The position numbers were made by a program, and so were the translations under genes. The notes under the pieces were generated by a model. The model searched no databases. It saw only the letters and a program-made list of their open reading frames with translations, and was not told the DNA's origin. DNA of 32,959 nucleotides, taken from positions 1 to 32,959 of the forward strand of contig CAVPLU010000015.1 of the NCBI GenBank assembly GCA_963706285.1. Reading direction: 5' to 3'. Positions 1-8,996 of the stretch are shown in pieces (within the stretch, counting starts at the first letter, position 1; each line of letters opens with the position of its first letter). Source of the DNA: Candidatus Bathyarchaeota archaeon. GTDB taxonomy: Archaea > Thermoproteota > Bathyarchaeia > 40CM-2-53-6.

Positions 1-299
1 CCCCATTTTTTTTAAAATCCGATTTTTCTTGTTATGAATCCAAGGTGCCCATATTCAGACACGTGTCCGCGTGCTCACTCTCTGCCAAACTGCGCATTTC
101 AAAACTCATGGCGAGAATCCGATCGCTCGCACCAAGCACGGAACACATCTAAGTCCAAAAAACCACGAACGAGACGGTTTCGTCAAATGTACATGCCCGC
201 GCCATCGTCCGTCAAGATAAAGGGGAAGCTGTCAAGTAATGCCGCAAGGTCTCAAGATGACAGAATTGGCGCGTTTCGCTTCAGACTGTAGACGGTGAA

Positions 300-1155
300 T
301 TGATTCAATTGTCGTTTGAAATCCAAGAACTAGCTGACATCATAAGAGTGATTGTTCTTCTTAGCCTACGCAAGGGCGATCGGCACGAGTTCCTGTCACT
401 TAAGCGACGGATAGACAAGATCTGTGCAGGCCCTCACGTCCACGTCGAAATGAATGACCTCGATCGAGCGTTGAAAGAGATGGTTTCCGAGGGACTCGTT
501 CTGTTTCAAGAGGGAGCGGTTCAGCTGACTGATCGAGGCGTCAGACTCGGCGAGGAATGGCGAAGGCTCCTCTTGAAGAAGGACCCTGTGATCGAAGTTG
601 TAGCTGGATTAGCTGATGGATCAGTTACCGGGACTGGTTGTCGTGCTTTCCGCATTCATTGCAGGCCTATCCACCAGCGCTGCAACGTTCGCAGCCTTTC
701 TGACGCTGACCTCTGTCGCGATCACCAATTTCTCCAGTTTCATGCTTGGCGGCATCACTGAGGACTTGGCAGACTTGGTGAACCTGCGGGCATTGATGGA
801 CTATAGTGTGAGCGACATTCCTGACAAGATGGAAAGAGACAAGTCTCTTGCAGTACTCAGGCACCTATTCACCGTTCTTCACAAAGAGATAGGTAGATCG
901 AACCTTCAAGCAGCAGCGATCTGTGGAACAACCACATTCCTATCAGGCATCATGCCAATCCTGGCATACTTGACTCTGCCAAGCCCGTTAGACATCATTC
1001 TGTCGTTGAGTTTGGTAGCCACCATCGCTGGTGTTTTCTTAGTCAGATATCGTTCCAAAAAAACAAGAGTCCACTGGAAAGCCACGCTGCTTGAAACAAT
1101 TGTAATAGTGACTATCGCAGTTCTCGCTTCACTACTGCTTGGACGTAGTCTCTAG
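300..1155 (+). CDS. Winged-helix domain fused to a VIT1/CCC1-family membrane domain; one apparent frameshift at GGG 630-632
   Basis: ORF 300..761 up to VVAGLADGSVTG joins ORF 616..1155 at LVVVLSAF if one G is removed from 'accgggactg'. The N-terminus has a wHTH signature (LDRALKEMVSEGLV...VQLTDRG). The C-terminal part has VIT1-like motifs GLADG, SFMLGG-x-TED and TFLSGIMPILAY, with about 5 TM segments. Confidence 0.7.
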
Positions 1156-1172
1156 ATCAAATGCTAGGTTCC

Positions 1173-1652
1173 TCAACCACTGAGCAGCTGACCAAGGAGA
1201 GCCCATCCGTAGTATCCGGCGTAAGCATAGAAGAGGCTCAGGATGGTCTTCCCGATGATTCCTGCCAACAAGGCCTTCGCTTTCGGGTACCGCATGAACC
1301 CGAGCGGTATCCACACTATGTCGTCAGGACTTAGCGGCGTTGCCGCAGTGGCGACGATCAGCCAGAACCCGTATTTTCCGTACCTGACGCGCCATTTCTC
1401 GAATCTTTTGCGAGTCTCGGGAGAGAACAGGATCCTCCCACCGAGACCGATGTAGTAGTGGAGAAACTGACCGGCTCCTGCCCCGATTCCCGAAACAACC
1501 CCCACCACTATCGGGTTCAGTTGCGTCGCCATCAAGGGAATGAGAACATAGGAGGGAAAGAAGGGAATAACCGACCCTAGAAAGCCCGCCAGGAAAGCAC
1601 CCAAATAACCCATTCGATCCATTGTTTCAAGTGCTGATTCAATCCAAGACAT
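1173..1652 (-). CDS. DedA/VTT (SNARE-associated) family membrane protein
   Basis: GYLGAFLAGFLGS...P, GAGAGQFLHYYIG and TPLSPDD...PLG...GK pattern typical of DedA/YqaA-like proteins; hydrophobic throughout. Confidence 0.85.
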   Translation of the reverse strand: MSWIESALETMDRMGYLGAFLAGFLGSVIPFFPSYVLIPLMATQLNPIVVGVVSGIGAGAGQFLHYYIGLGGRILFSPETRKRFEKWRVRYGKYGFWLIVATAATPLSPDDIVWIPLGFMRYPKAKALLAGIIGKTILSLFYAYAGYYGWALLGQLLSG

Positions 1653-1926
1653 GCAGTTCTCAGCGCCATTCTATGGTCTCGTGCCACTCGTATGCCTTTG
1701 ATCGAGCGGCCCGCTACGAATGCTTTGACCTACTTGAATACTTGCAGATTGACGGCCTCACATCGTTCTCTTTATCCAAGAAGACGTGACAAAACTGGAA
1801 TCAGGTCCTCCACAAGTTACATCATCTAAGTCTGGGCTCTCCAGGCACGAGCATTGACGCCTTAATCCCTCCTCCGTGGGCACGAGCAACACTAATTGAA
1901 CCGTCGTTCAGACCGTGATTTTCTTG

Positions 1927-2099
1927 GTGGTGGTGCGCACCAAGCTGATCGCACGCAATGGAACGATTGAATCGTCCATGCATGTTCGGGGCAAGATCTG
2001 GGGGCGGAAGTAGTCCGAGTTCAATGCGGCGTGTGTGGCATGTTCAAGATCGCATTCTGCAAAGAGGTGCCGCCCTCCGGGAAAGAGGTACCGCTTTGA
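1927..2099 (+). CDS. Possible small zinc-ribbon-like protein (needs one added base near 1970)
   Basis: Manual translation: VVVRTKLIARNGTIE / IVHACSGQDLGAEVVRVQCGVCGMFKIAFCKEVPPSGKEVPL*, with HxC...CxxCG. Not in the ORF track. Confidence 0.3.
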
Positions 2100-2198
2100 A
2101 AGTTCTAATTAACGCGGATAAGGCGTGAGTCATCGTCTACCGTGGATGTGTGTGGCACATTAGGGACGGGCACCACAATTTCAATGCCATAGGAGGAT

Positions 2199-2792
2199 CT
2201 ATTTCGAGTGAAGCAGGATCTGGTTGTGTTTTCCCATGGCAAATAAGGCGCGATCTAGTCTGCGGAATGGCGGGTATTCTATCGAATTCCAAACCCTACT
2301 TGGCACTTGCCTGACCCAGCTATTGAAGTCGATTCGATAGGATTCGTACTCCCTCTCATCGTGGATCAGCTCGCCTGCTCGCGCAATCTCATCACTACGA
2401 CCAGAGATCAAGAGGTGCGCCTTGAGCACATACTGATCCCAAACCGGGTACTTGCGTGGGCTTATGATGTGGCATATGAAGAAGCGTTTCACCAGCCCCC
2501 CTTTCGAAAATGTTTCTGCAAATTTGACAACAGAGCGACCTTCCTTGAACCTCAACTCGTTCAATTCGCGTAAGCGTTTGATAACTGGACGAGGATCCCA
2601 GCTGGGTACTGGTCTGTATTTCCAGCCAAACAGATACCTCACATCATCTGCGGTGAGTTTTCCACCCTTCCACTTCAAATGCTCCAAGAACTTAGAGTCC
2701 GGATGCTGCGTGTTCTCTTCGTAGAATTGCTCCCAATAGTCAACAAGGTCCTCTGGAGAGCTACACGTGGTCTTGGAAAGTTTGACAAACAC
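2199..2792 (-). CDS. Hypothetical protein resembling the HhH DNA glycosylase superfamily
   Basis: 197 aa. Motif order FGWK, GGLVKRFFICHII-SP-xx-YPVWDQYVLKA, YESY, RRLDRALFAMGK parallels HhH, then P-x(1,2)-D, then the C-terminal helix of HhH-GPD-like proteins. Confidence 0.55.
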   Translation of the reverse strand: MFVKLSKTTCSSPEDLVDYWEQFYEENTQHPDSKFLEHLKWKGGKLTADDVRYLFGWKYRPVPSWDPRPVIKRLRELNELRFKEGRSVVKFAETFSKGGLVKRFFICHIISPRKYPVWDQYVLKAHLLISGRSDEIARAGELIHDEREYESYRIDFNSWVRQVPSRVWNSIEYPPFRRLDRALFAMGKHNQILLHSK

Positions 2793-2940
2793 GGATCAGT
2801 CCCTCTCCAAATCCCATGCTGATTGTTCCAAGTTATGCGGAATTGACTAATCCTGCTTTCTGGATGCTCAATCAGACGCTCCATCAGAGAGTGTCTAAAG
2901 GGTTAGATAGAATGTTCGTTAGATTGCTGATCGACGCTCT

Positions 2941-4059
2941 TTGATTGGTGAGGTTGCGAAGAAAGTCGCTCAGGATCTCGATCGCTTGATCGTTGAGAAG
3001 GAGCTTGGCGATCCATTTCTAGGCAATCGCAACTACCGACCGTATCCGCTAAATCCCAACTACCTCACGCAAATTCGACGTGTAGAGAGTGGCAGGAAAC
3101 TTGCCTTCATAGATGGTGGGAATCAGGAACTCATCGGCGCACCAAACTTCTCTGTCCAACTTAACAGAACCTACTTCAACCTCTTCGCAAGAGCGAAGAT
3201 GACGCAACCGAAGTCGCTGCCAAACAGGGTTGAGTTCATCTCAGTCACACACGCTGACTTCAGAAACGGGAAGATACACTACCACACCTCAACGTTTCCA
3301 GCGAATGAGAAGTGTTCCAGTTCTGTTCCTGACTTGTCCAACATTTCATTTGATTCGGCGGACAAGAGAATCATGGTAGGTAATGCACGCGCAGATATTC
3401 GTCGTGTTGCTTCCATAACCAGAAGATTCGCTGAATGGCAATGTGCCAAACAAATACTTGAGAATGAACTTGATCGAAAGGATATCTTGGTAATGGACGG
3501 TACGCTTTGGACAGGTTTTCCGAACGAGTCCAAGTATGCCAGAGCTGTATACTCAACGGCGAATGAGAAAGGGATTCTTTGCTCTGGCTTGTCGAAGACT
3601 AGTCGGCTCCTAACTACAACCGGGCTTTCTCTCTCGGGTGCTGTTAGAAGGCTGGCTTTGGACAACGAAGTCGGACCGGTGTGGTATTATTATCCTATTG
3701 CGGATTCACTGAGTACGGATCATCAGGCGGCCATTTTCCTGTTGAAGCTCAGCGATCAGTCACAACGCATCTTCAGATACGAGATCAATTCAGGGCAAGC
3801 AAGATCTCTCAATCCTGAGGAGCTTAATGAGATCTTCAGTGAGTTGTCGATCAACGCGAGCGACCTCAGTTTTCCTGGCTACCCTTATGGTCTGATTGAC
3901 GCGGATGACAATGCCCGCGTCAGGTTCGAAGAACTGGAGACATATCGAGTGTTATTGTTGTCTGAAATCTCTAAGCTCGGTTCTGCTGCGAAATTCGTTC
4001 GCCACATGCAATCAAGTGACGCTCACGATGTTTTGAATGGCCTCAGGGGGGTTTCGTAG
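2941..4059 (+). CDS. nurA: DNA double-strand break repair nuclease NurA
   Basis: Motifs AFIDGG, LVMDGTL, GLSKTS and GYPYGLIDADDNAR; lies directly upstream of herA-mre11-rad50. Confidence 0.93.
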   Translation: MIGEVAKKVAQDLDRLIVEKELGDPFLGNRNYRPYPLNPNYLTQIRRVESGRKLAFIDGGNQELIGAPNFSVQLNRTYFNLFARAKMTQPKSLPNRVEFISVTHADFRNGKIHYHTSTFPANEKCSSSVPDLSNISFDSADKRIMVGNARADIRRVASITRRFAEWQCAKQILENELDRKDILVMDGTLWTGFPNESKYARAVYSTANEKGILCSGLSKTSRLLTTTGLSLSGAVRRLALDNEVGPVWYYYPIADSLSTDHQAAIFLLKLSDQSQRIFRYEINSGQARSLNPEELNEIFSELSINASDLSFPGYPYGLIDADDNARVRFEELETYRVLLLSEISKLGSAAKFVRHMQSSDAHDVLNGLRGVS

Positions 4060-4061
4060 GC

Positions 4062-5583
4062 TTGACAGTCTGCGGGCAGATTGTTGCTGGCGAAATAGGC
4101 AAGATCCTCATACGAGAGAAGAGCGGTGAGAAAATCGAGCTTGGAGACCTGCTCGTAGTCGAAGATGCTGAAGGCTTTCTCATAATGCAGGTCTACGATC
4201 TTCTCTATGGAAGCCAGATATCGAAAATGGCAAGGGAACAGATTGCCGGCCTGAAATTGGAGGGTTTCGGCGTCGGGTTAGAATTCTTTGAACCGCAGCT
4301 GAGAAACTACGTGCTGGCACAGGCGAAAGCGGTCCTACGATTCACCAGCAAAGCTCAGGCGGCAAAGACGCTCCCAGATTTCTTCGGAATAGTAAGACAC
4401 GCAGAAGCGAAAGACCTGCAGTTCCTGAGCAAGCCCGAGAATCCGATCTACCTCGGCAAGGTTCGCAGCGGTTCGAAGGTGATGGATGTTCCGGTCTACT
4501 TGGACGGGTCGGAGGCTCTGGTTCACCACATACTCATCCCCTCCGCGACCGGCAGAGGAAAAAGCAACCTGGTCAAAGTCATGCTCTGGAGCATTATCGG
4601 TCAACACAAGTTTGGCGTCTTGGTCTTGGACGCTCATGACGAGTACTACGGCAGAACGGGCGTAGGCCTCAAAGACCACCCGACAGCCAGCGGCGGGTTA
4701 GCGTATTATTCGGTGAATCCGCCGCCCGGCACGAACACCCTCAGTAATCAGTCTCAAGACGATTCTGCCCTCACACCTTGAAGGCATTATTTCGCTCACT
4801 GAAGCTCAGGGGCAGGCTGTGCGCAGATACTACACAGAATACAGGGAAAACTGGATAGAGAATATTCTCCGAGGAACGCCATTAGAAGGCGTGAAGGACG
4901 TAACGCTCGGCGTCCTACAGCGAATCATCAACACCAAACTATCCATCCACATTAAGGACGGAGAGATTGCCTGCAGGAATAGACTCTTCAGCGCCACCGC
5001 GGGCGAGTCTACAGTCAAGGAGATCGTGAGTGCGCTCGAGAATGGCAAGATCGTCGTTATCGACACGTCGAAGATCGGCGACGAGGCCGAGCTTCTAATT
5101 GGAAGCATGATCGCAACAAACGTCCTCGACAGTTACCAGAACAGCAAAGCCGAGGGAACACTCAAGGACAAGCTCCCGGTTAGTATCGTGATCGAGGAAG
5201 CCCCTCGAGTACTAGCAAGCGAAAAGCTGCAGGCTGGGGAAAACGTTTACAGTCGGATCGCGAGGGAAGGTCGAAAATTCAAGGTTGGCCTGATAGCGAT
5301 AACTCAGCTTACAAGTGTGATTCCACGCGACATTCTAACGAACATTAACACGAAGATAATTCTTGGAAACGAGATGGCTACGGAGAGACGTGCGGTAATA
5401 GATAGCGCCGCTCAAGATCTCGAAGACGACGACCAGATGATAGCGAGTCTCGATAAGGGCGAGGCGATAGTTACCAGTATATTCACAAGATTCGCCGTGC
5501 CGATACAGATACCTCTCTTTGAGAGCCTCGTCAAGGAACAGAAGGCCGCTCGGAAGCAGTCAGATTTGGAGTATACTGGGTAG
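4062..5583 (+). CDS. herA: HerA helicase/translocase (HAS barrel plus FtsK/HerA ATPase); one frameshift near 4743
   Basis: N-terminal barrel (GQIV...IELGDLLVV), Walker A ATGRGKSN, LDAHDEY, Walker B IVIEEA and IAREGRKFKVGLIAITQ. ORFs 4062..4781 and 4819..5583 join through TNTL/VISLKTILPSHLEG when one base is removed. Confidence 0.93.
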
Positions 5584-5590
5584 ACTCTAT

Positions 5591-6857
5591 TTGGGAAGCT
5601 TCGCTCACCTGTCGGACATTCACATCGGCGCGTTCAGACAGCCAATTCTCCAAGACCTTGCACTCAAATCATTCACACGAGCAATGGACATCTGCATTGA
5701 GCGAGCGGTCGATTTCATAATAGTGAGCGGCGACCTCTTCGACTCAAACATCCCAGACATGGCATTGGCAAATGCAGCGGTAAAGAAGATCAGAGAAGTC
5801 ACAAAGAAAGGCATCCCATTCTACGTCGTTTACGGCAGCCACGACTTCAGCCCAACCCAAACATCTATCGTTGACCTGATCGAAAGTGCGGGCCTCTTCA
5901 AGAAAGTCACACAGGGCAAAATGATCGACGGTAAATTGCATCTTGAGTTTCAGGTCGATGACCGTACCAATGCGAAACTCTGCGGCATTTCGGGCAGAAG
6001 GCTAGGAATCGAGAAAGAATACTACAACGTCTTGGACAGGGCTTCGCTGGAGAAAGAAGACGGATTCAAGATATTTGTGATGCATGGCGCCGTAACCGAG
6101 TACAAGCCAAAGTACGCTGCGGAATCAGAATCAATCCCTTTGTCGAGTTTGCCGAGACAATTCGCTTACTATGCTGGAGGGCATATCCACGAGAAACTCC
6201 TCAGCAACGAGTACGGGTACAATCTAGCATATCCCGGGACGCCCTTCGGCGCCGACTATCGCGACCTAGAAACCACCGCAAGAGGCCAAGAGAGAGGCTT
6301 CTTCATCGTCAAATTCTCCACAAGAGTCGAGAAGATTGAGTTTGTGCCAGTCCCGGTTTGTAGCTACGGGCTAATCGAATACGATGCTAACGGCAAGACC
6401 GCAGCGAAAGTGCAGGAGGATCTTCTCAAGCTCGCGGGAGAGCATGATCGGGTGAGCAACCGATTGTTCCTTCTGAGGGTCTCGGGGGAAATGTCAGGCG
6501 GCAAAACCTCCGAGATAGATTTCCAGCACATAAGAAGGACGATGAAAGACAACGGCGCACTTGAGGTGCTGCTCAACTATCAGAGATTGACCTCGAAGGA
6601 ATACCGCTGCGATACGAGTAGCCGGCATGGGCGAGGAAGTTCACAAGATCGAGGAGAGACTCTTCAGGGAAAACATTGGAAACGTGAGAGTCTCAAACCC
6701 CAAGCTGAAAGCTGACTCAGGCGTCCGAACCTCGTGCGAGCTACTCTCTGTCCTCAAGCAACCAAAGAAAGAAAATGAAACCAAGGGAAGCCACGAAACT
6801 CGAATCATCAGCGCCGCAGTTGACGCGCTTGGCTTGAAGGAGACGTTGTCGGAATGA
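5591..6857 (+). CDS. mre11: Mre11 nuclease; one frameshift near 6605
   Basis: Phosphoesterase motifs SDIH, GDLFD, GSHD, MHG, GHIH and YPG. Likely TTG start at 5591, just after the herA stop. The C-terminus continues KEY/AAIRVAGMGEEV into ORF 6627..6857, whose stop overlaps the rad50 start (ATGA). Confidence 0.93.
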
Positions 6858-8996
6858 TGCTCAAAGCGCTGACGCTTGAGAACATCCGCAGCTACAAGGA
6901 TGAGATGCGCATTCAGTTCCCTTCAGGCACGATCCTATTCGAAGGCGACATTGCATCCGGAAAATCCACGATACTCTACGCGATTGAGTTCGCGCTCTTC
7001 GGTCTCGGTGACATGAAATCCTCGTCGCTGCTAAGAAACGGCGCCAAACGCGGTCAGGTCGCCCTTCGGTTCGAAGTCGACGGAAAAGAATACGAAGTTC
7101 ACAGGAGCCTAATCAAGAAAGGGAAAATCATTCAGCAGGATGAATGTTACATCGACGGACCAAATGGGAAAAATGTTCTCTCTGCTTCTGAGTTGAAGGA
7201 GAGAGTCCTCCAGCTTCTAGGATTCAACGAACCGTCCAATCCGAGAGCTCAGAGCGTGATCTACCGCTACGCAATCTTCACTCCGCAAGAAGAGATGAAA
7301 GAAGTCATCCTGAAGCAACCTGACGAGAGACTGCAGACACTACGAAAGGCGCTGAGAATTGAAGACTACAGAATTGCAGCCGACAACACTTCAGCACTTC
7401 TTGGAAAATTGAAGGAGAGAACAAAATACCTCGAAGGCGCAACCCAAGACCTAGACGCCATCAAGAAGAAGATTGATGATGAGAAGAAGCTGATCGCAAA
7501 GATCACGGATGAGCTAGGCCCTCTAAAGCAGAAGGAAACACACCTCAAGGAAGAAATCAAGACCAAGAACGAGAAGCTGAAACAGCTTCAGGGAGAACGA
7601 GAGAAGATCAGGAAAGCCGAGGCGACAATCCCGCTTCTGAGGAATCAAATCGAAGACAAGAATGCATCAGTGAGACTCGCTACAGAACAGAATCAGTCGC
7701 TCAAGAAGAGAATCGATGACACACAGACCCAGGATATCAGAACTTGAATCCGTAAGGCAACCTACTGAGAAATCAAAGGATGAACTCAGACGAACACAAA
7801 ACGAACTCAAGATTAGACTGGAGAATGTGCAGAAACGGAAGGGTGGATTCGATGAGCGCATCGCCAACTTGAACTCGATACTCCAGCAGAAAATATGTCC
7901 GGTGTGCGAGCGGCCCGTGGAGTCGGAGGAGTTTCGCAGCAAATGCCAACATGTGACCGCGGAACGCTCCAGACCTTGATCGCGAAATCGGCAATTGTGA
8001 GAAGTCAATCGCAGAAATCGAGCAGCTCATAGACGGACTAGGCCGATACGAAACGGCGCAAAGTCAGCTGAGCATACTTCGCTCGCAAATGAAGGAGAAC
8101 ACCGATAGATTCGAACGGAACAATCGAACAGTCAACGAGCTCACCGAAGGATATCAAGGTGCTCCAAGCGCAGCTGAACGATGCATTATCGAAGGTCGAG
8201 CCTCTGCAACAGGTCTTGCGAAGTACTGATATGTTGGAGAAAGAAGTTGAGAAACTGAACGACGAGCTCGCCGATGTTGGGAAACGGATTTCGGCGAAAC
8301 AAACGTCCGTGCAGAGCTGCCGAAGAGACTCTGAAAGAACTGCAGACGCAATTGGATCAGAAGACGAAGTGGCTGGAAACATTGAAGTCGTTTCGAGAAC
8401 ACAACATCTGGCTAGGCGAATACTTGGCTCCCACGATCGTAAATATCGAGAAGCACGTGATGACTTCAATAAATCAGAGGTTCGCTGAGCAGTTCGCAAA
8501 ATGGTTCCAGATCCTGATAGAAGACGCGGACATGCAGGTCCGAATCGACGAGGACTTCTCACCGATAATTGAACGGGAAGGATACGAGCAGGACTTCAAC
8601 GCCTTAAGCGGAGGTGAGAAGACAAGCGTCGCTTTAGCCTACAGATTAGCCCTAAACACTACCGTTCAAGAAGTCACGATAGGTGGAGACTCGAACTTGC
8701 TGATCCTTGATGAGCCCACAGACGGCTTCAGCAAAGAACAGCTCTACAAGATTAGGGATATTCTTGAGGAGTTGAAGTGTCCGCAAGTAATTCTGGTGTC
8801 GCATGAAAGGGAACTTGAAGGCTTCGCAGATCATGTCTTCAAAGTGAGCAAGTCGGATGGCGTTTCCGGGCTTGAGAGCGAATTAACGGCGTGTAAAGGA
8901 CCGAACATGGTTGCCAGTTTTCTTCCTAGCAACGTCAAGATGAAATCCGAGTTAGGTATTTGCTTTGACTGTTCTCCGATCCCTGCAATTTTCTAG
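6854..8996 (+). CDS. rad50: Rad50 ATPase; four frameshifts (about 7727, 7972, 8150, 8314)
   Basis: LENIRSY, Walker A GDIASGKST, Q-loop FTPQEE, coiled coils, zinc hook CPVC (7896-7907), signature LSGGE, Walker B LILDEPT and H-loop VSH. The last ~35 codons may not be genuine. Confidence 0.93.

Follow-up and report, generated by a model that had tools for sequence, protein, structure and literature searches.

A Winged-Helix Domain Fused to a VIT1-like Membrane Domain in a Protein Family of Bathyarchaeia

The DNA under study (the window: 32,959 nucleotides (nt) of Candidatus Bathyarchaeota archaeon assembly GCA_963706285.1, contig CAVPLU010000015.1, forming the start of contig C15; all positions are given in window numbering) carries at 309-1155 on the + strand one gene encoding a protein of about 281 amino acids (aa) that belongs to a tight, conserved family. 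In this family an N-terminal winged-helix domain is joined to a membrane domain with the predicted fold of the iron transporter VIT1. The architecture is real, widespread and undescribed in the literature found: no paper on a fusion of winged helix and VIT1 was located in full text, subscription journals lying outside this coverage. The reading frame of the window copy is interrupted by a single surplus G.

Two overlapping open reading frames (ORFs) are present on the + strand in different frames, at 300..761 (153 aa) and 616..1155 (179 aa). When GGGA at 630-633 is read as one step, an uninterrupted product of 284 aa is obtained (P0001). An earlier reading of the window, made from the letters alone (the sequence-only reading), had proposed one G too many in the run 630-632; this repair position is right, and removal of the base gives a single continuous protein. 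The same reading had held that the fusion does not depend on the repair, which is confirmed, because the winged helix and the motif E-V-V-A-G-L-A-D-G-S-V-T-G (EVVAGLADGSVTG), the first of the VIT1 motifs, share one frame before the break. The start that agrees with the family is TTG 309 rather than TTG 300, and the repaired protein counted from TTG 309 has 281 aa. The sequence GGTG[AG] stands no more than 25 nt from the start in 72 of 79 family upstream regions, and the starts are mostly GTG or TTG. The Pro codon at 432-434 is a 3-base insertion shared by the window copy and its twin on contig C16, the contigs of relatives having no such bases at 431/432. The features of the gene are as follows (TM, transmembrane helix; H, helix):

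294..298, + strand: Shine-Dalgarno-like GGTGA, 10 nt upstream of TTG 309, from the sequence
309..1155, + strand: whole gene, winged helix plus VIT1-like membrane domain, +1 frameshifted, stop codon TAG at 1153-1155, from ORFs and homologues
330..572, + strand: winged-helix core in the order H1-strand-H2-H3-hairpin-H4, mapped from the model of homologue P0002
423..449, + strand: loop between H2 and H3, Cys42-Ala-Gly-Pro-His46-Val-His48-Val-Glu50 in P0001 numbering, candidate metal site, from family pattern and alignment
588..663, + strand: TM1 with the signature E-V-V-A-G-L-A-D-G; Glu at 594-596, Asp at 615-617 equivalent to Asp43 of EgVIT1
630..633, + strand: frameshift site, one extra G in the run 630-632, from read-through, the C16 twin and relatives' contigs
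673..813, + strand: TM2 running into a cytoplasmic helix; Asn at 727-729 in the position of EgVIT1 Met80, followed by an invariant G-G-x-T-E-D
826..975, + strand: second cytoplasmic helix running into TM3, forming a two-helix hairpin with the previous helix
988..1149, + strand: TM4 and TM5 with the basic loop RYRSKKTRVHWK between them (net charge about +6); TM5 holds an invariant Glu-Thr
198..1167, + strand: sole stretch of the first 4 kb of the window that is homologous to the loci of its nearest relatives (79-91% nt identity; flanks differ)

The last entry was obtained by blastn of window 1-4000 against the metagenome loci L118-L124, L143 and L150.

A search with P0001 returned 2232 proteins with an expectation value (E) of 1e-3 or lower among 8000 scored candidates. 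The best 120 homologues are 65-93% identical to P0001 and cover 93-99% of the query; 114 of them are 276-289 aa long, exactly 280 aa being found in 74, and the junction motif DGS[IV][TA][GSA]L[VI] is unbroken in every one. Their database names are 'hypothetical protein', 'VIT1/CCC1 family predicted Fe2+/Mn2+ transporter' or 'DNA-binding PadR family transcriptional regulator', the informative names covering one half each. The sequence-only reading had allowed that the architecture might already be annotated as a common family: it is indeed widespread and not rare, but it is unnamed, and databases annotate only one of its halves at a time. On the fusion, NCBIfam models all stay below their cut-offs, and none of the models describes both halves; in the ESM Atlas only clusters of 'hypothetical protein' from Bathyarchaeota were found, one of them with VIT1 on 25% of its members. 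When the homologue P0002 (93% identical to P0001) was compared by phmmer with 1.84 billion representatives clustered at 50%, 79 matches were obtained, mostly fragments of the same family, and the full-length members at this clustering were P0122 (56% identity), P0124 (43%) and P0130 (35%). Judged by these comparisons, the family is a tight, isolated clade.

A search of archaeal genomes for the intact architecture, as the earlier reading had proposed, showed it to be widespread, nearly always in Bathyarchaeia. On contigs of species-representative genomes, a relative is encoded in 209 of 275 pattern matches; among the best 80 of these 209 loci, 77 carry names in Bathyarchae-, 1 is named 'miscellaneous Crenarchaeota group' and 2 come from metagenome-assembled genomes (MAGs) labelled Acidobacteriota. 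The family is thus found almost only in Bathyarchaeia. The two Acidobacteriota-labelled MAGs (L059 and L069; Acidoferrum, Sulfotelmatobacter) show the gene neighbourhood of the Bathyarchaeial loci, and their contigs are probably mis-binned because the neighbourhood is the same. Within a genome sample of the window's class, the family occurs in 15 of 151 genomes (11 of the 94 high-quality ones), and within a sample of the phylum in 25 of 251, 17 of which lie outside the window's class.

The structure of P0002 was predicted with AlphaFold2 from a 31-row alignment (mean predicted local distance difference test score, pLDDT, 79.9), and the model was compared with 48,161 representative chains by VIA-align (VIA) and with the Protein Data Bank (PDB) by Foldseek. 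Five long helices are predicted at residues 93-117, 121-167, 172-221, 226-251 and 255-279; like EgVIT1, the predicted fold has five TMs and, between the second and third, a helical insert on the cytoplasmic side. The top VIA match is EgVIT1 (6iu4_A; Z 15.8, root-mean-square deviation (rmsd) 5.1, 188 residues aligned, model 90-280), with a Z value above the tool's caution level for helical proteins, and the top Foldseek match in the PDB is EgVIT1 6iu3 (E 2.7e-3, probability 1.00, 221 columns). The charge of about +6 on the loop between TM4 and TM5 indicates that this loop, and with it the N-terminal domain, is cytoplasmic, as in EgVIT1.

Profile comparisons point to the same relationship, and the membrane part is VIT1-like by both approaches, as had been proposed from the motifs. 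Against the Pfam model VIT1 (PF01988, cut-off 28.1 bits), ORF 616-1152 scores 28.8 and the read-through product P0001 27.1; the match covers the C-terminal half only (profile positions 104-214), and E values of 0.1 or lower (best 1.7e-6) are reached by 11 of 12 aligned members. A comparison by hhalign of the family alignment A2 with 20 Bathyarchaeial VIT1 proteins gave a probability of 98.2% (E 2.2e-13, 208 columns); with a single canonical VIT1 as target it gave only 23.9%, the 20-sequence target being needed. A jackhmmer search of a small local database, made up of ORFs from Bathyarchaeial VIT1 loci, started from the canonical VIT1 of the same genome and recruited a family member (E 1.6e-30). 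This canonical VIT1 (251 aa; L084 1453-2208, - strand, corresponding to G000:C17:12177-12806) scores 199 bits against Pfam VIT1 and matches EgVIT1 (6iu3) at E 1.4e-33, with Asp43, Glu72, Gly76 and Met80 all present. Two results count against the assignment: the similarity to solved VIT1 is not significant by sequence alone (the family profile, compared with PDB sequences, gave 6iu3 at E 0.62, flanked by SlyA at E 0.26 and PadR 9qbd at E 0.78, none of them significant), and no canonical VIT1 is found among the 79 phmmer matches of P0002.

EgVIT1 numbering was fixed by alignment with the C17 VIT1 (Asp43-Gly44 in G-V-S-D-G, then Gly69, Glu72, Gly76 and Met80). Between the D-G motif and the Glu that follows TM2, the jackhmmer and hhalign alignments have no gaps, this distance being 48 residues in both proteins. 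In the 117 aligned members the EgVIT1 positions are occupied as follows:

EgVIT1 Asp43, P0002 position 102: Asp in 116 of 117
EgVIT1 Gly44, P0002 position 103: Gly in 117 of 117
EgVIT1 Glu72, P0002 position 131: Thr in 106 and Ser in 9 of 117
EgVIT1 Gly76, P0002 position 135: Val in 115 of 117
EgVIT1 Met80, P0002 position 139: Asn in 116 of 117

The sequence-only reading had taken both the Asp of TM1 (GLADG) and the Met of TM2 (SFMLGG) to be retained. The Asp and the Gly that follows it are kept, but the Met is not: Met80 stands opposite Asn and Glu72 opposite Thr or Ser. The Met of SFMLGG (742-744) aligns with a Tyr of canonical VIT1, and in the 117 members its place is taken most often by Leu (99), then by Met (10) and Val (6). 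The Glu of TM1 is kept in 116 of 117 members, and the G-G-x-T-E-D after TM2 and the Glu-Thr of TM5 are invariant. In the available part of the review PMC7714665, Asp43 of EgVIT1 is assigned to metal coordination, Met80 to selectivity for transition metals and Glu72 to the proton/metal path, and EgVIT1 is described as working as a dimer. A homodimer prediction with two copies of alignment A2 gave a score of 0.19 against a mark of 0.42 and counts neither way on dimerisation.

The N-terminal part had been read as a winged helix, and its first 90 residues or so do model as one. Residues 8-87 of the P0002 model comprise helices at 8-19, 28-38, 47-59 and 74-87 and strands at 25-27, 63-66 and 69-72. 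VIA places this domain next to PadR Rv0047c (Z 11.8, rmsd 2.0, 75 residues aligned), followed by RosR, SarZ, MarR, HxlR and HlyU (ArsR type) at Z of about 9-11.4, and Foldseek matches it to PadR/LmrR entries with a probability of 1.00. Sequence families were less telling: none of the DNA-binding Pfam families matches significantly (best HemN_C at E 9.5e-4 and HTH_45 at E 0.024, both below their cut-offs), no Pfam model of PadR is listed up to E 1 for the fusion protein, and no ferritin or rubrerythrin model matches the N-terminal domain. Over 117 members the winged helix has a median net charge of -2 and an isoelectric point (pI) of 5.66; the same median charge, -2, is found for the wing and for the putative recognition helix (47-59) taken singly, and H2 alone is basic (+3). 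About 5 residues, among them an invariant Pro, link H4 to TM1.

The turn between H2 and H3 is an 8-residue loop with the family pattern C39-x2-[Y/H/F]-x-C44-[V/I]-[E/D]46. Cys39 is present in 113 of 117 members, and at position 44, 102 members have Cys and 9 have His; the subclade to which the window belongs has C-x2-H-x-H-x-E. The suggestion that the C-A-G-P-H-V-H loop might bind metal gains support from this conserved Cys/His pattern, in that a conserved Cys-x4-Cys/His-x-Glu loop resembles a metal site. It is read as a putative metal site rather than a thiol switch because an exchange of Cys for His keeps a metal ligand and not a disulfide.

The surplus G was examined by way of a second copy of the gene on contig C16 of the same genome bin. 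The overlap compared comprises window 1-6589 and L117 (G000:C16:1-6333), the starts of C15 and of C16 (the latter on the reverse strand), with 95-97% identity. Window 197-811 is identical in C16 except that the extra G is missing there (615 bases), and window 6-891 matches at 97.2% identity; beyond 891 the C16 copy runs into about 1 kb of unrelated sequence, and homology returns at window 2187-6589 (94.7%). The unrelated sequence takes the place of window 892-2186, that is, of the 3' third of the gene and the VTT/DedA gene. Upstream of the C16 copy, a gene at L001 2384-3592 (- strand), presumably for a tryptophan-synthase-beta-like pyridoxal phosphate enzyme as read by eye from its sequence, has a long C-terminal tail rich in Arg and Thr that resembles another frameshift. 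As far as the alignment tells, the ends of C15 and C16 are overlapping haplotypes or an unmerged overlap and no duplication; two strains binned together (contamination 7.5%) are one possible source, an overlap left unmerged the other.

Between these overlapping ends, 27 indel events occur in about 5.3 kb, many of them as neighbouring +1/-1 pairs inside the coding sequences of Mre11 and HerA. HerA is split in the window into 4062-4781 and 4819-5583 in different frames, and Rad50 into at least two pieces (6854-7747 and 8274-8996). Ahead of the HerA stop, the window has one base more than C16, inserted at 4742; the open frame has 253 aa in the window, 389 aa in C16 and 437 aa in a genome of the same genus. 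The splitting of both HerA and Rad50, in the NurA-HerA-Mre11-Rad50 cluster, suggests an indel-prone assembly. The reads of the source sample were not found among the public runs (best: 16% of sampled words). Of the contigs from four metagenome runs with relatives, only one bridges the site (X2), and it is a base short at 628; in X1, X3 and X4 the contigs are clipped at 629-631, their loose ends reading in frame. Measured against six close relatives, the ratio of nonsynonymous to synonymous substitution (dN/dS) is 0.05-0.21 for the part before the break and, in the shifted frame, 0.09-0.16 for the part beyond it; purifying selection has acted on the gene until now. The extra G most probably arose through an error of assembly or sequencing, or else by a very recent mutation, at odds of somewhat better than two to one over a real lesion.

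A real frameshift, in which a recently acquired cassette decays as a pseudogene with the +1 shift in one haplotype and a 3' truncation in the other, is the less probable account, one to which we still grant a sizeable minority share. Several observations favour it and weigh against an error. None of the 3 genomes of the same genus and 11 of the same family that were sampled (those listed are 77-95% complete) yielded a member of the family; the homology to the nearest relatives is confined to 198-1167, like that of an inserted cassette; and the C16 haplotype is truncated after residue 197 or so, where homology ends at window 891. The RcnA-like gene that accompanies the family gene in the window's subclade (described below) is missing in the window. 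The pseudogene account has against it, however, that there is a single lesion in 847 bases, that the extra base lies within a homopolymer run, that the dN/dS past the break is as low as given above, that the indel events between the contig ends, with their clustered +1/-1 pairs in coding sequence, resemble sequencing noise, and that HerA and Rad50 of the same window are also split, the C16 HerA reading past the window's stop. That the ORFs are two distinct genes, one for a small winged-helix regulator and the other for a short VIT-like membrane protein, or that the +1 shift is programmed, is very improbable: possible start codons exist in both ORFs (TTG 300/309 and ATG 616), but the TM1 motif and helix of VIT1 straddle the break, the best 120 homologues all run continuously across it, the alignment with the TIGR00267 model spans it (residues 100-283), the short N-terminal-only database entries inspected resemble fragments or frameshifted calls, and there is no conserved recoding site, because neither the twin copy nor any relative seen has the extra G.

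The family was compared with the systems that it resembles. With the VIT1/CCC1 proteins of plants and yeast (PF01988; 6IU3/6IU4) it shares five TM helices, a cytoplasmic helical insert between TM2 and TM3, an N-terminus inside, the [E/D]-x3-G-x2-D-G motif of TM1 and the Glu of TM5, EgVIT1 being the best structural match in the PDB (Z 15.8). It differs in having Asn for Met80, Thr or Ser for Glu72 and Val for Gly76; in its insert, which is a two-helix hairpin whereas that of EgVIT1 is a three-helix, Glu-rich metal-binding domain; in the additional N-terminal winged helix; and in a Pfam score that only lies at the threshold. The short archaeal VIT proteins of TIGR00267 (about 170-210 aa, no metal-binding domain) agree with it in the size and layout of the membrane domain (model 3-169 of 171), but its members score 14-23 bits against a cut-off of 157 (19.4 for P0001, 14.4 for P0002 and 23.0 for the L112 member, at an exact cut-off of 156.95), TIGR00267 proteins have no winged helix, and the family does not belong to them. 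Bathyarchaeial genomes also carry short VIT proteins of about 200 aa, and a lineage can have up to four VIT-type paralogues.

The available parts of PMC7762939 and PMC7714665 describe MbfA (erythrin-VIT1) as an N-terminal ferritin-like domain with VIT1 and a link to oxidative stress. The family is like MbfA in placing a cytoplasmic metal-handling domain (putative here) N-terminally on a VIT1 membrane domain and in the link to oxidative stress; its N-terminus, however, is a winged helix with a Cys/His loop, and that of MbfA is a four-helix di-iron bundle. Other Bathyarchaeial VIT1 proteins of about 288-328 aa carry an N-terminal extension that looks ferritin-like by eye (L091, L094, L096-L099, L102 and L104). 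Regulators of the PadR, MarR and ArsR types share with the family the fold, the order of secondary structure and the helix after the wing, whereas the family domain is acidic, matches no hidden Markov model of those families, has an enlarged Cys/His turn and is fused directly to a membrane helix. Some FeoC proteins, the accessory proteins of the Feo Fe2+ transporter, hold a Cys-bound Fe-S cluster. FeoC likewise is a winged helix functionally attached to an iron transporter, and DNA binding has never been shown for it according to the available part of PMC7762939; it is, however, a separate small protein serving another transporter class, and the likeness noted is one of fold and role.

Gene neighbourhoods were compared by clustering the ORF calls of 80 genome loci (L004-L083), clusters being named by Pfam. 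The common block upstream on the same strand consists of glutaredoxin, the catalytic subunit of ferredoxin-thioredoxin reductase in fusion with a rubredoxin-like domain, endonuclease III, and then peroxiredoxin or flavin mononucleotide (FMN) reductase; the fusion is seen at L012 2321-2866 (Pfam FeThRed_B + RUBY_RBDX). Downstream, a convergent gene for a CoA-binding protein is found in 45-46 of the 80 loci, and HtrA, two helix-turn-helix proteins, a weak ferritin-like protein and flavodoxin lie further out. At least one redox gene (glutaredoxin, ferredoxin-thioredoxin reductase, peroxiredoxin, FMN reductase, disulfide oxidoreductase or flavodoxin) occurs no more than 4 kb away in 56 of the 80 loci, an association to be taken as a lead and not as a statistic because the loci are kin. 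This neighbourhood suggests a role of the family in redox and metal stress.

The gap to the upstream gene measures about 70-170 bp. Of 79 upstream regions (L004-L083), 64 have a promoter-like motif, C-x2-AA-x-AGTTATTAG, at a distance of 46-57 nt from the start; it is probably a BRE/TATA element (BRE, transcription factor B recognition element). The family gene is probably transcribed on its own. The window's subclade (L118-L124, L143, L150) has a different upstream sequence that is conserved within the subclade. Decay of the promoter in the window copy, which does not have the family motif AAnAGTTATTAG, was considered and rejected because the whole subclade shares this other conserved sequence. 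In 8 loci of the subclade (L119-L124, L143, L150; e.g. L119 2048-2749), a membrane protein of 233-248 aa with a His-rich loop is encoded directly downstream on the same strand; its similarity to RcnA, a Ni/Co efflux protein, is weak (NF007454, E 6e-8, far under the cut-off). Neither this gene nor remnants of it were found in the window or in C16, and it is absent too from L004-L083 and the remaining metagenome loci searched. The window has a convergent VTT/DedA-type gene downstream, followed by NurA-HerA-Mre11-Rad50.

On balance, and by a modest preponderance, we regard the family as a dimeric VIT-type exporter or sequestering channel for divalent metal, in which the winged helix serves as a metal-binding or thiol/metal-sensing domain and not mainly as a DNA binder. 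The N-terminal domain would sit beside the cytoplasmic pore mouth formed by TM1 and TM2; the Cys/His/Glu loop would capture or sense metal and thereby feed or gate the pore, so that the winged helix would do what the Glu-rich domain does in EgVIT1 or the ferritin-like domain in MbfA. The pore would keep the Glu/Asp-Gly motif of TM1 and the Glu of TM5, and the exchanges of Met80 for Asn and Glu72 for Thr imply a possible departure from canonical Fe2+/H+ antiport in the ion carried or in its coupling. Several points speak against an exporter of this kind. With Met80, Glu72 and Gly76 replaced, the domain could be a non-transporting sensor; the canonical VIT1 on C17 means that iron export may already be covered; P0124 and P0130, the most divergent full-length members, are without the Cys pair; and the redox neighbourhood is absent from the window itself and may be inherited gene order. 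Transport, metal binding and dimerisation of the family are inferred.

The sequence-only reading had also raised a membrane-tethered one-component regulator, or 'transceptor', whose VIT1-like domain would sense metal or let it pass and whose winged helix would be a DNA binder working at the membrane; its targets could be the RcnA-like exporter downstream in the window's subclade and redox genes elsewhere. We consider this unlikely, at roughly one chance in five. The topology is that of a true winged helix whose best structural matches are DNA-binding regulators of the PadR, MarR, HxlR and ArsR types (Z 9-11.8), and the hairpin is followed by a V-Q-L-T-E-x-G motif, as is usual in winged-helix regulators. 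Sensors of the ArsR type bind metal in the helix-turn-helix turn to release DNA, and the Cys/His loop lies within that turn here. The gene has its own conserved promoter-like motif, a metal-exporter-like gene stands directly downstream in the 8 subclade loci, and a dimer such as that described for EgVIT1 in the available part of PMC7714665 would pair two winged helices. Against DNA binding, however, stand the acidic recognition helix and wing, in a domain that is acidic as a whole; the widening of the helix-turn-helix turn to 8 residues; the short linker with its invariant Pro between H4 and TM1, which leaves little room for DNA; and the want of a significant match to the DNA-binding Pfam families (HemN_C and HTH_45 as above).

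A narrower version, which we hold to be slightly less probable still, would make a metal sensor of the VIT1-derived pore that has lost the canonical Met and Glu: through the 5-residue linker it would act on the Cys/His winged helix, which would bind DNA or a partner and switch a neighbouring gene of metal efflux or redox defence. If true, this would be a membrane-integral archaeal one-component system built from a transporter fold and widespread in Bathyarchaeia.

For the window itself, the practical lesson is that the split gene is most likely an assembly indel. In plants, fungi and parasites, iron is detoxified chiefly by export through VIT1/CCC1 proteins. Among N-terminal fusions of VIT1, only the ferritin-like domain of MbfA is named in the available parts of PMC7714665 and PMC7762939. 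The present family would be a second N-terminal solution, a winged helix with a conserved Cys/His site at the predicted mouth of a VIT-type pore whose selectivity residues are changed, and it is found in roughly a tenth of the sampled genomes of abundant, uncultured sediment archaea. It shows a possible re-use of a DNA-binding fold on a transporter, and its recognition would improve the annotation of more than 2000 database proteins.

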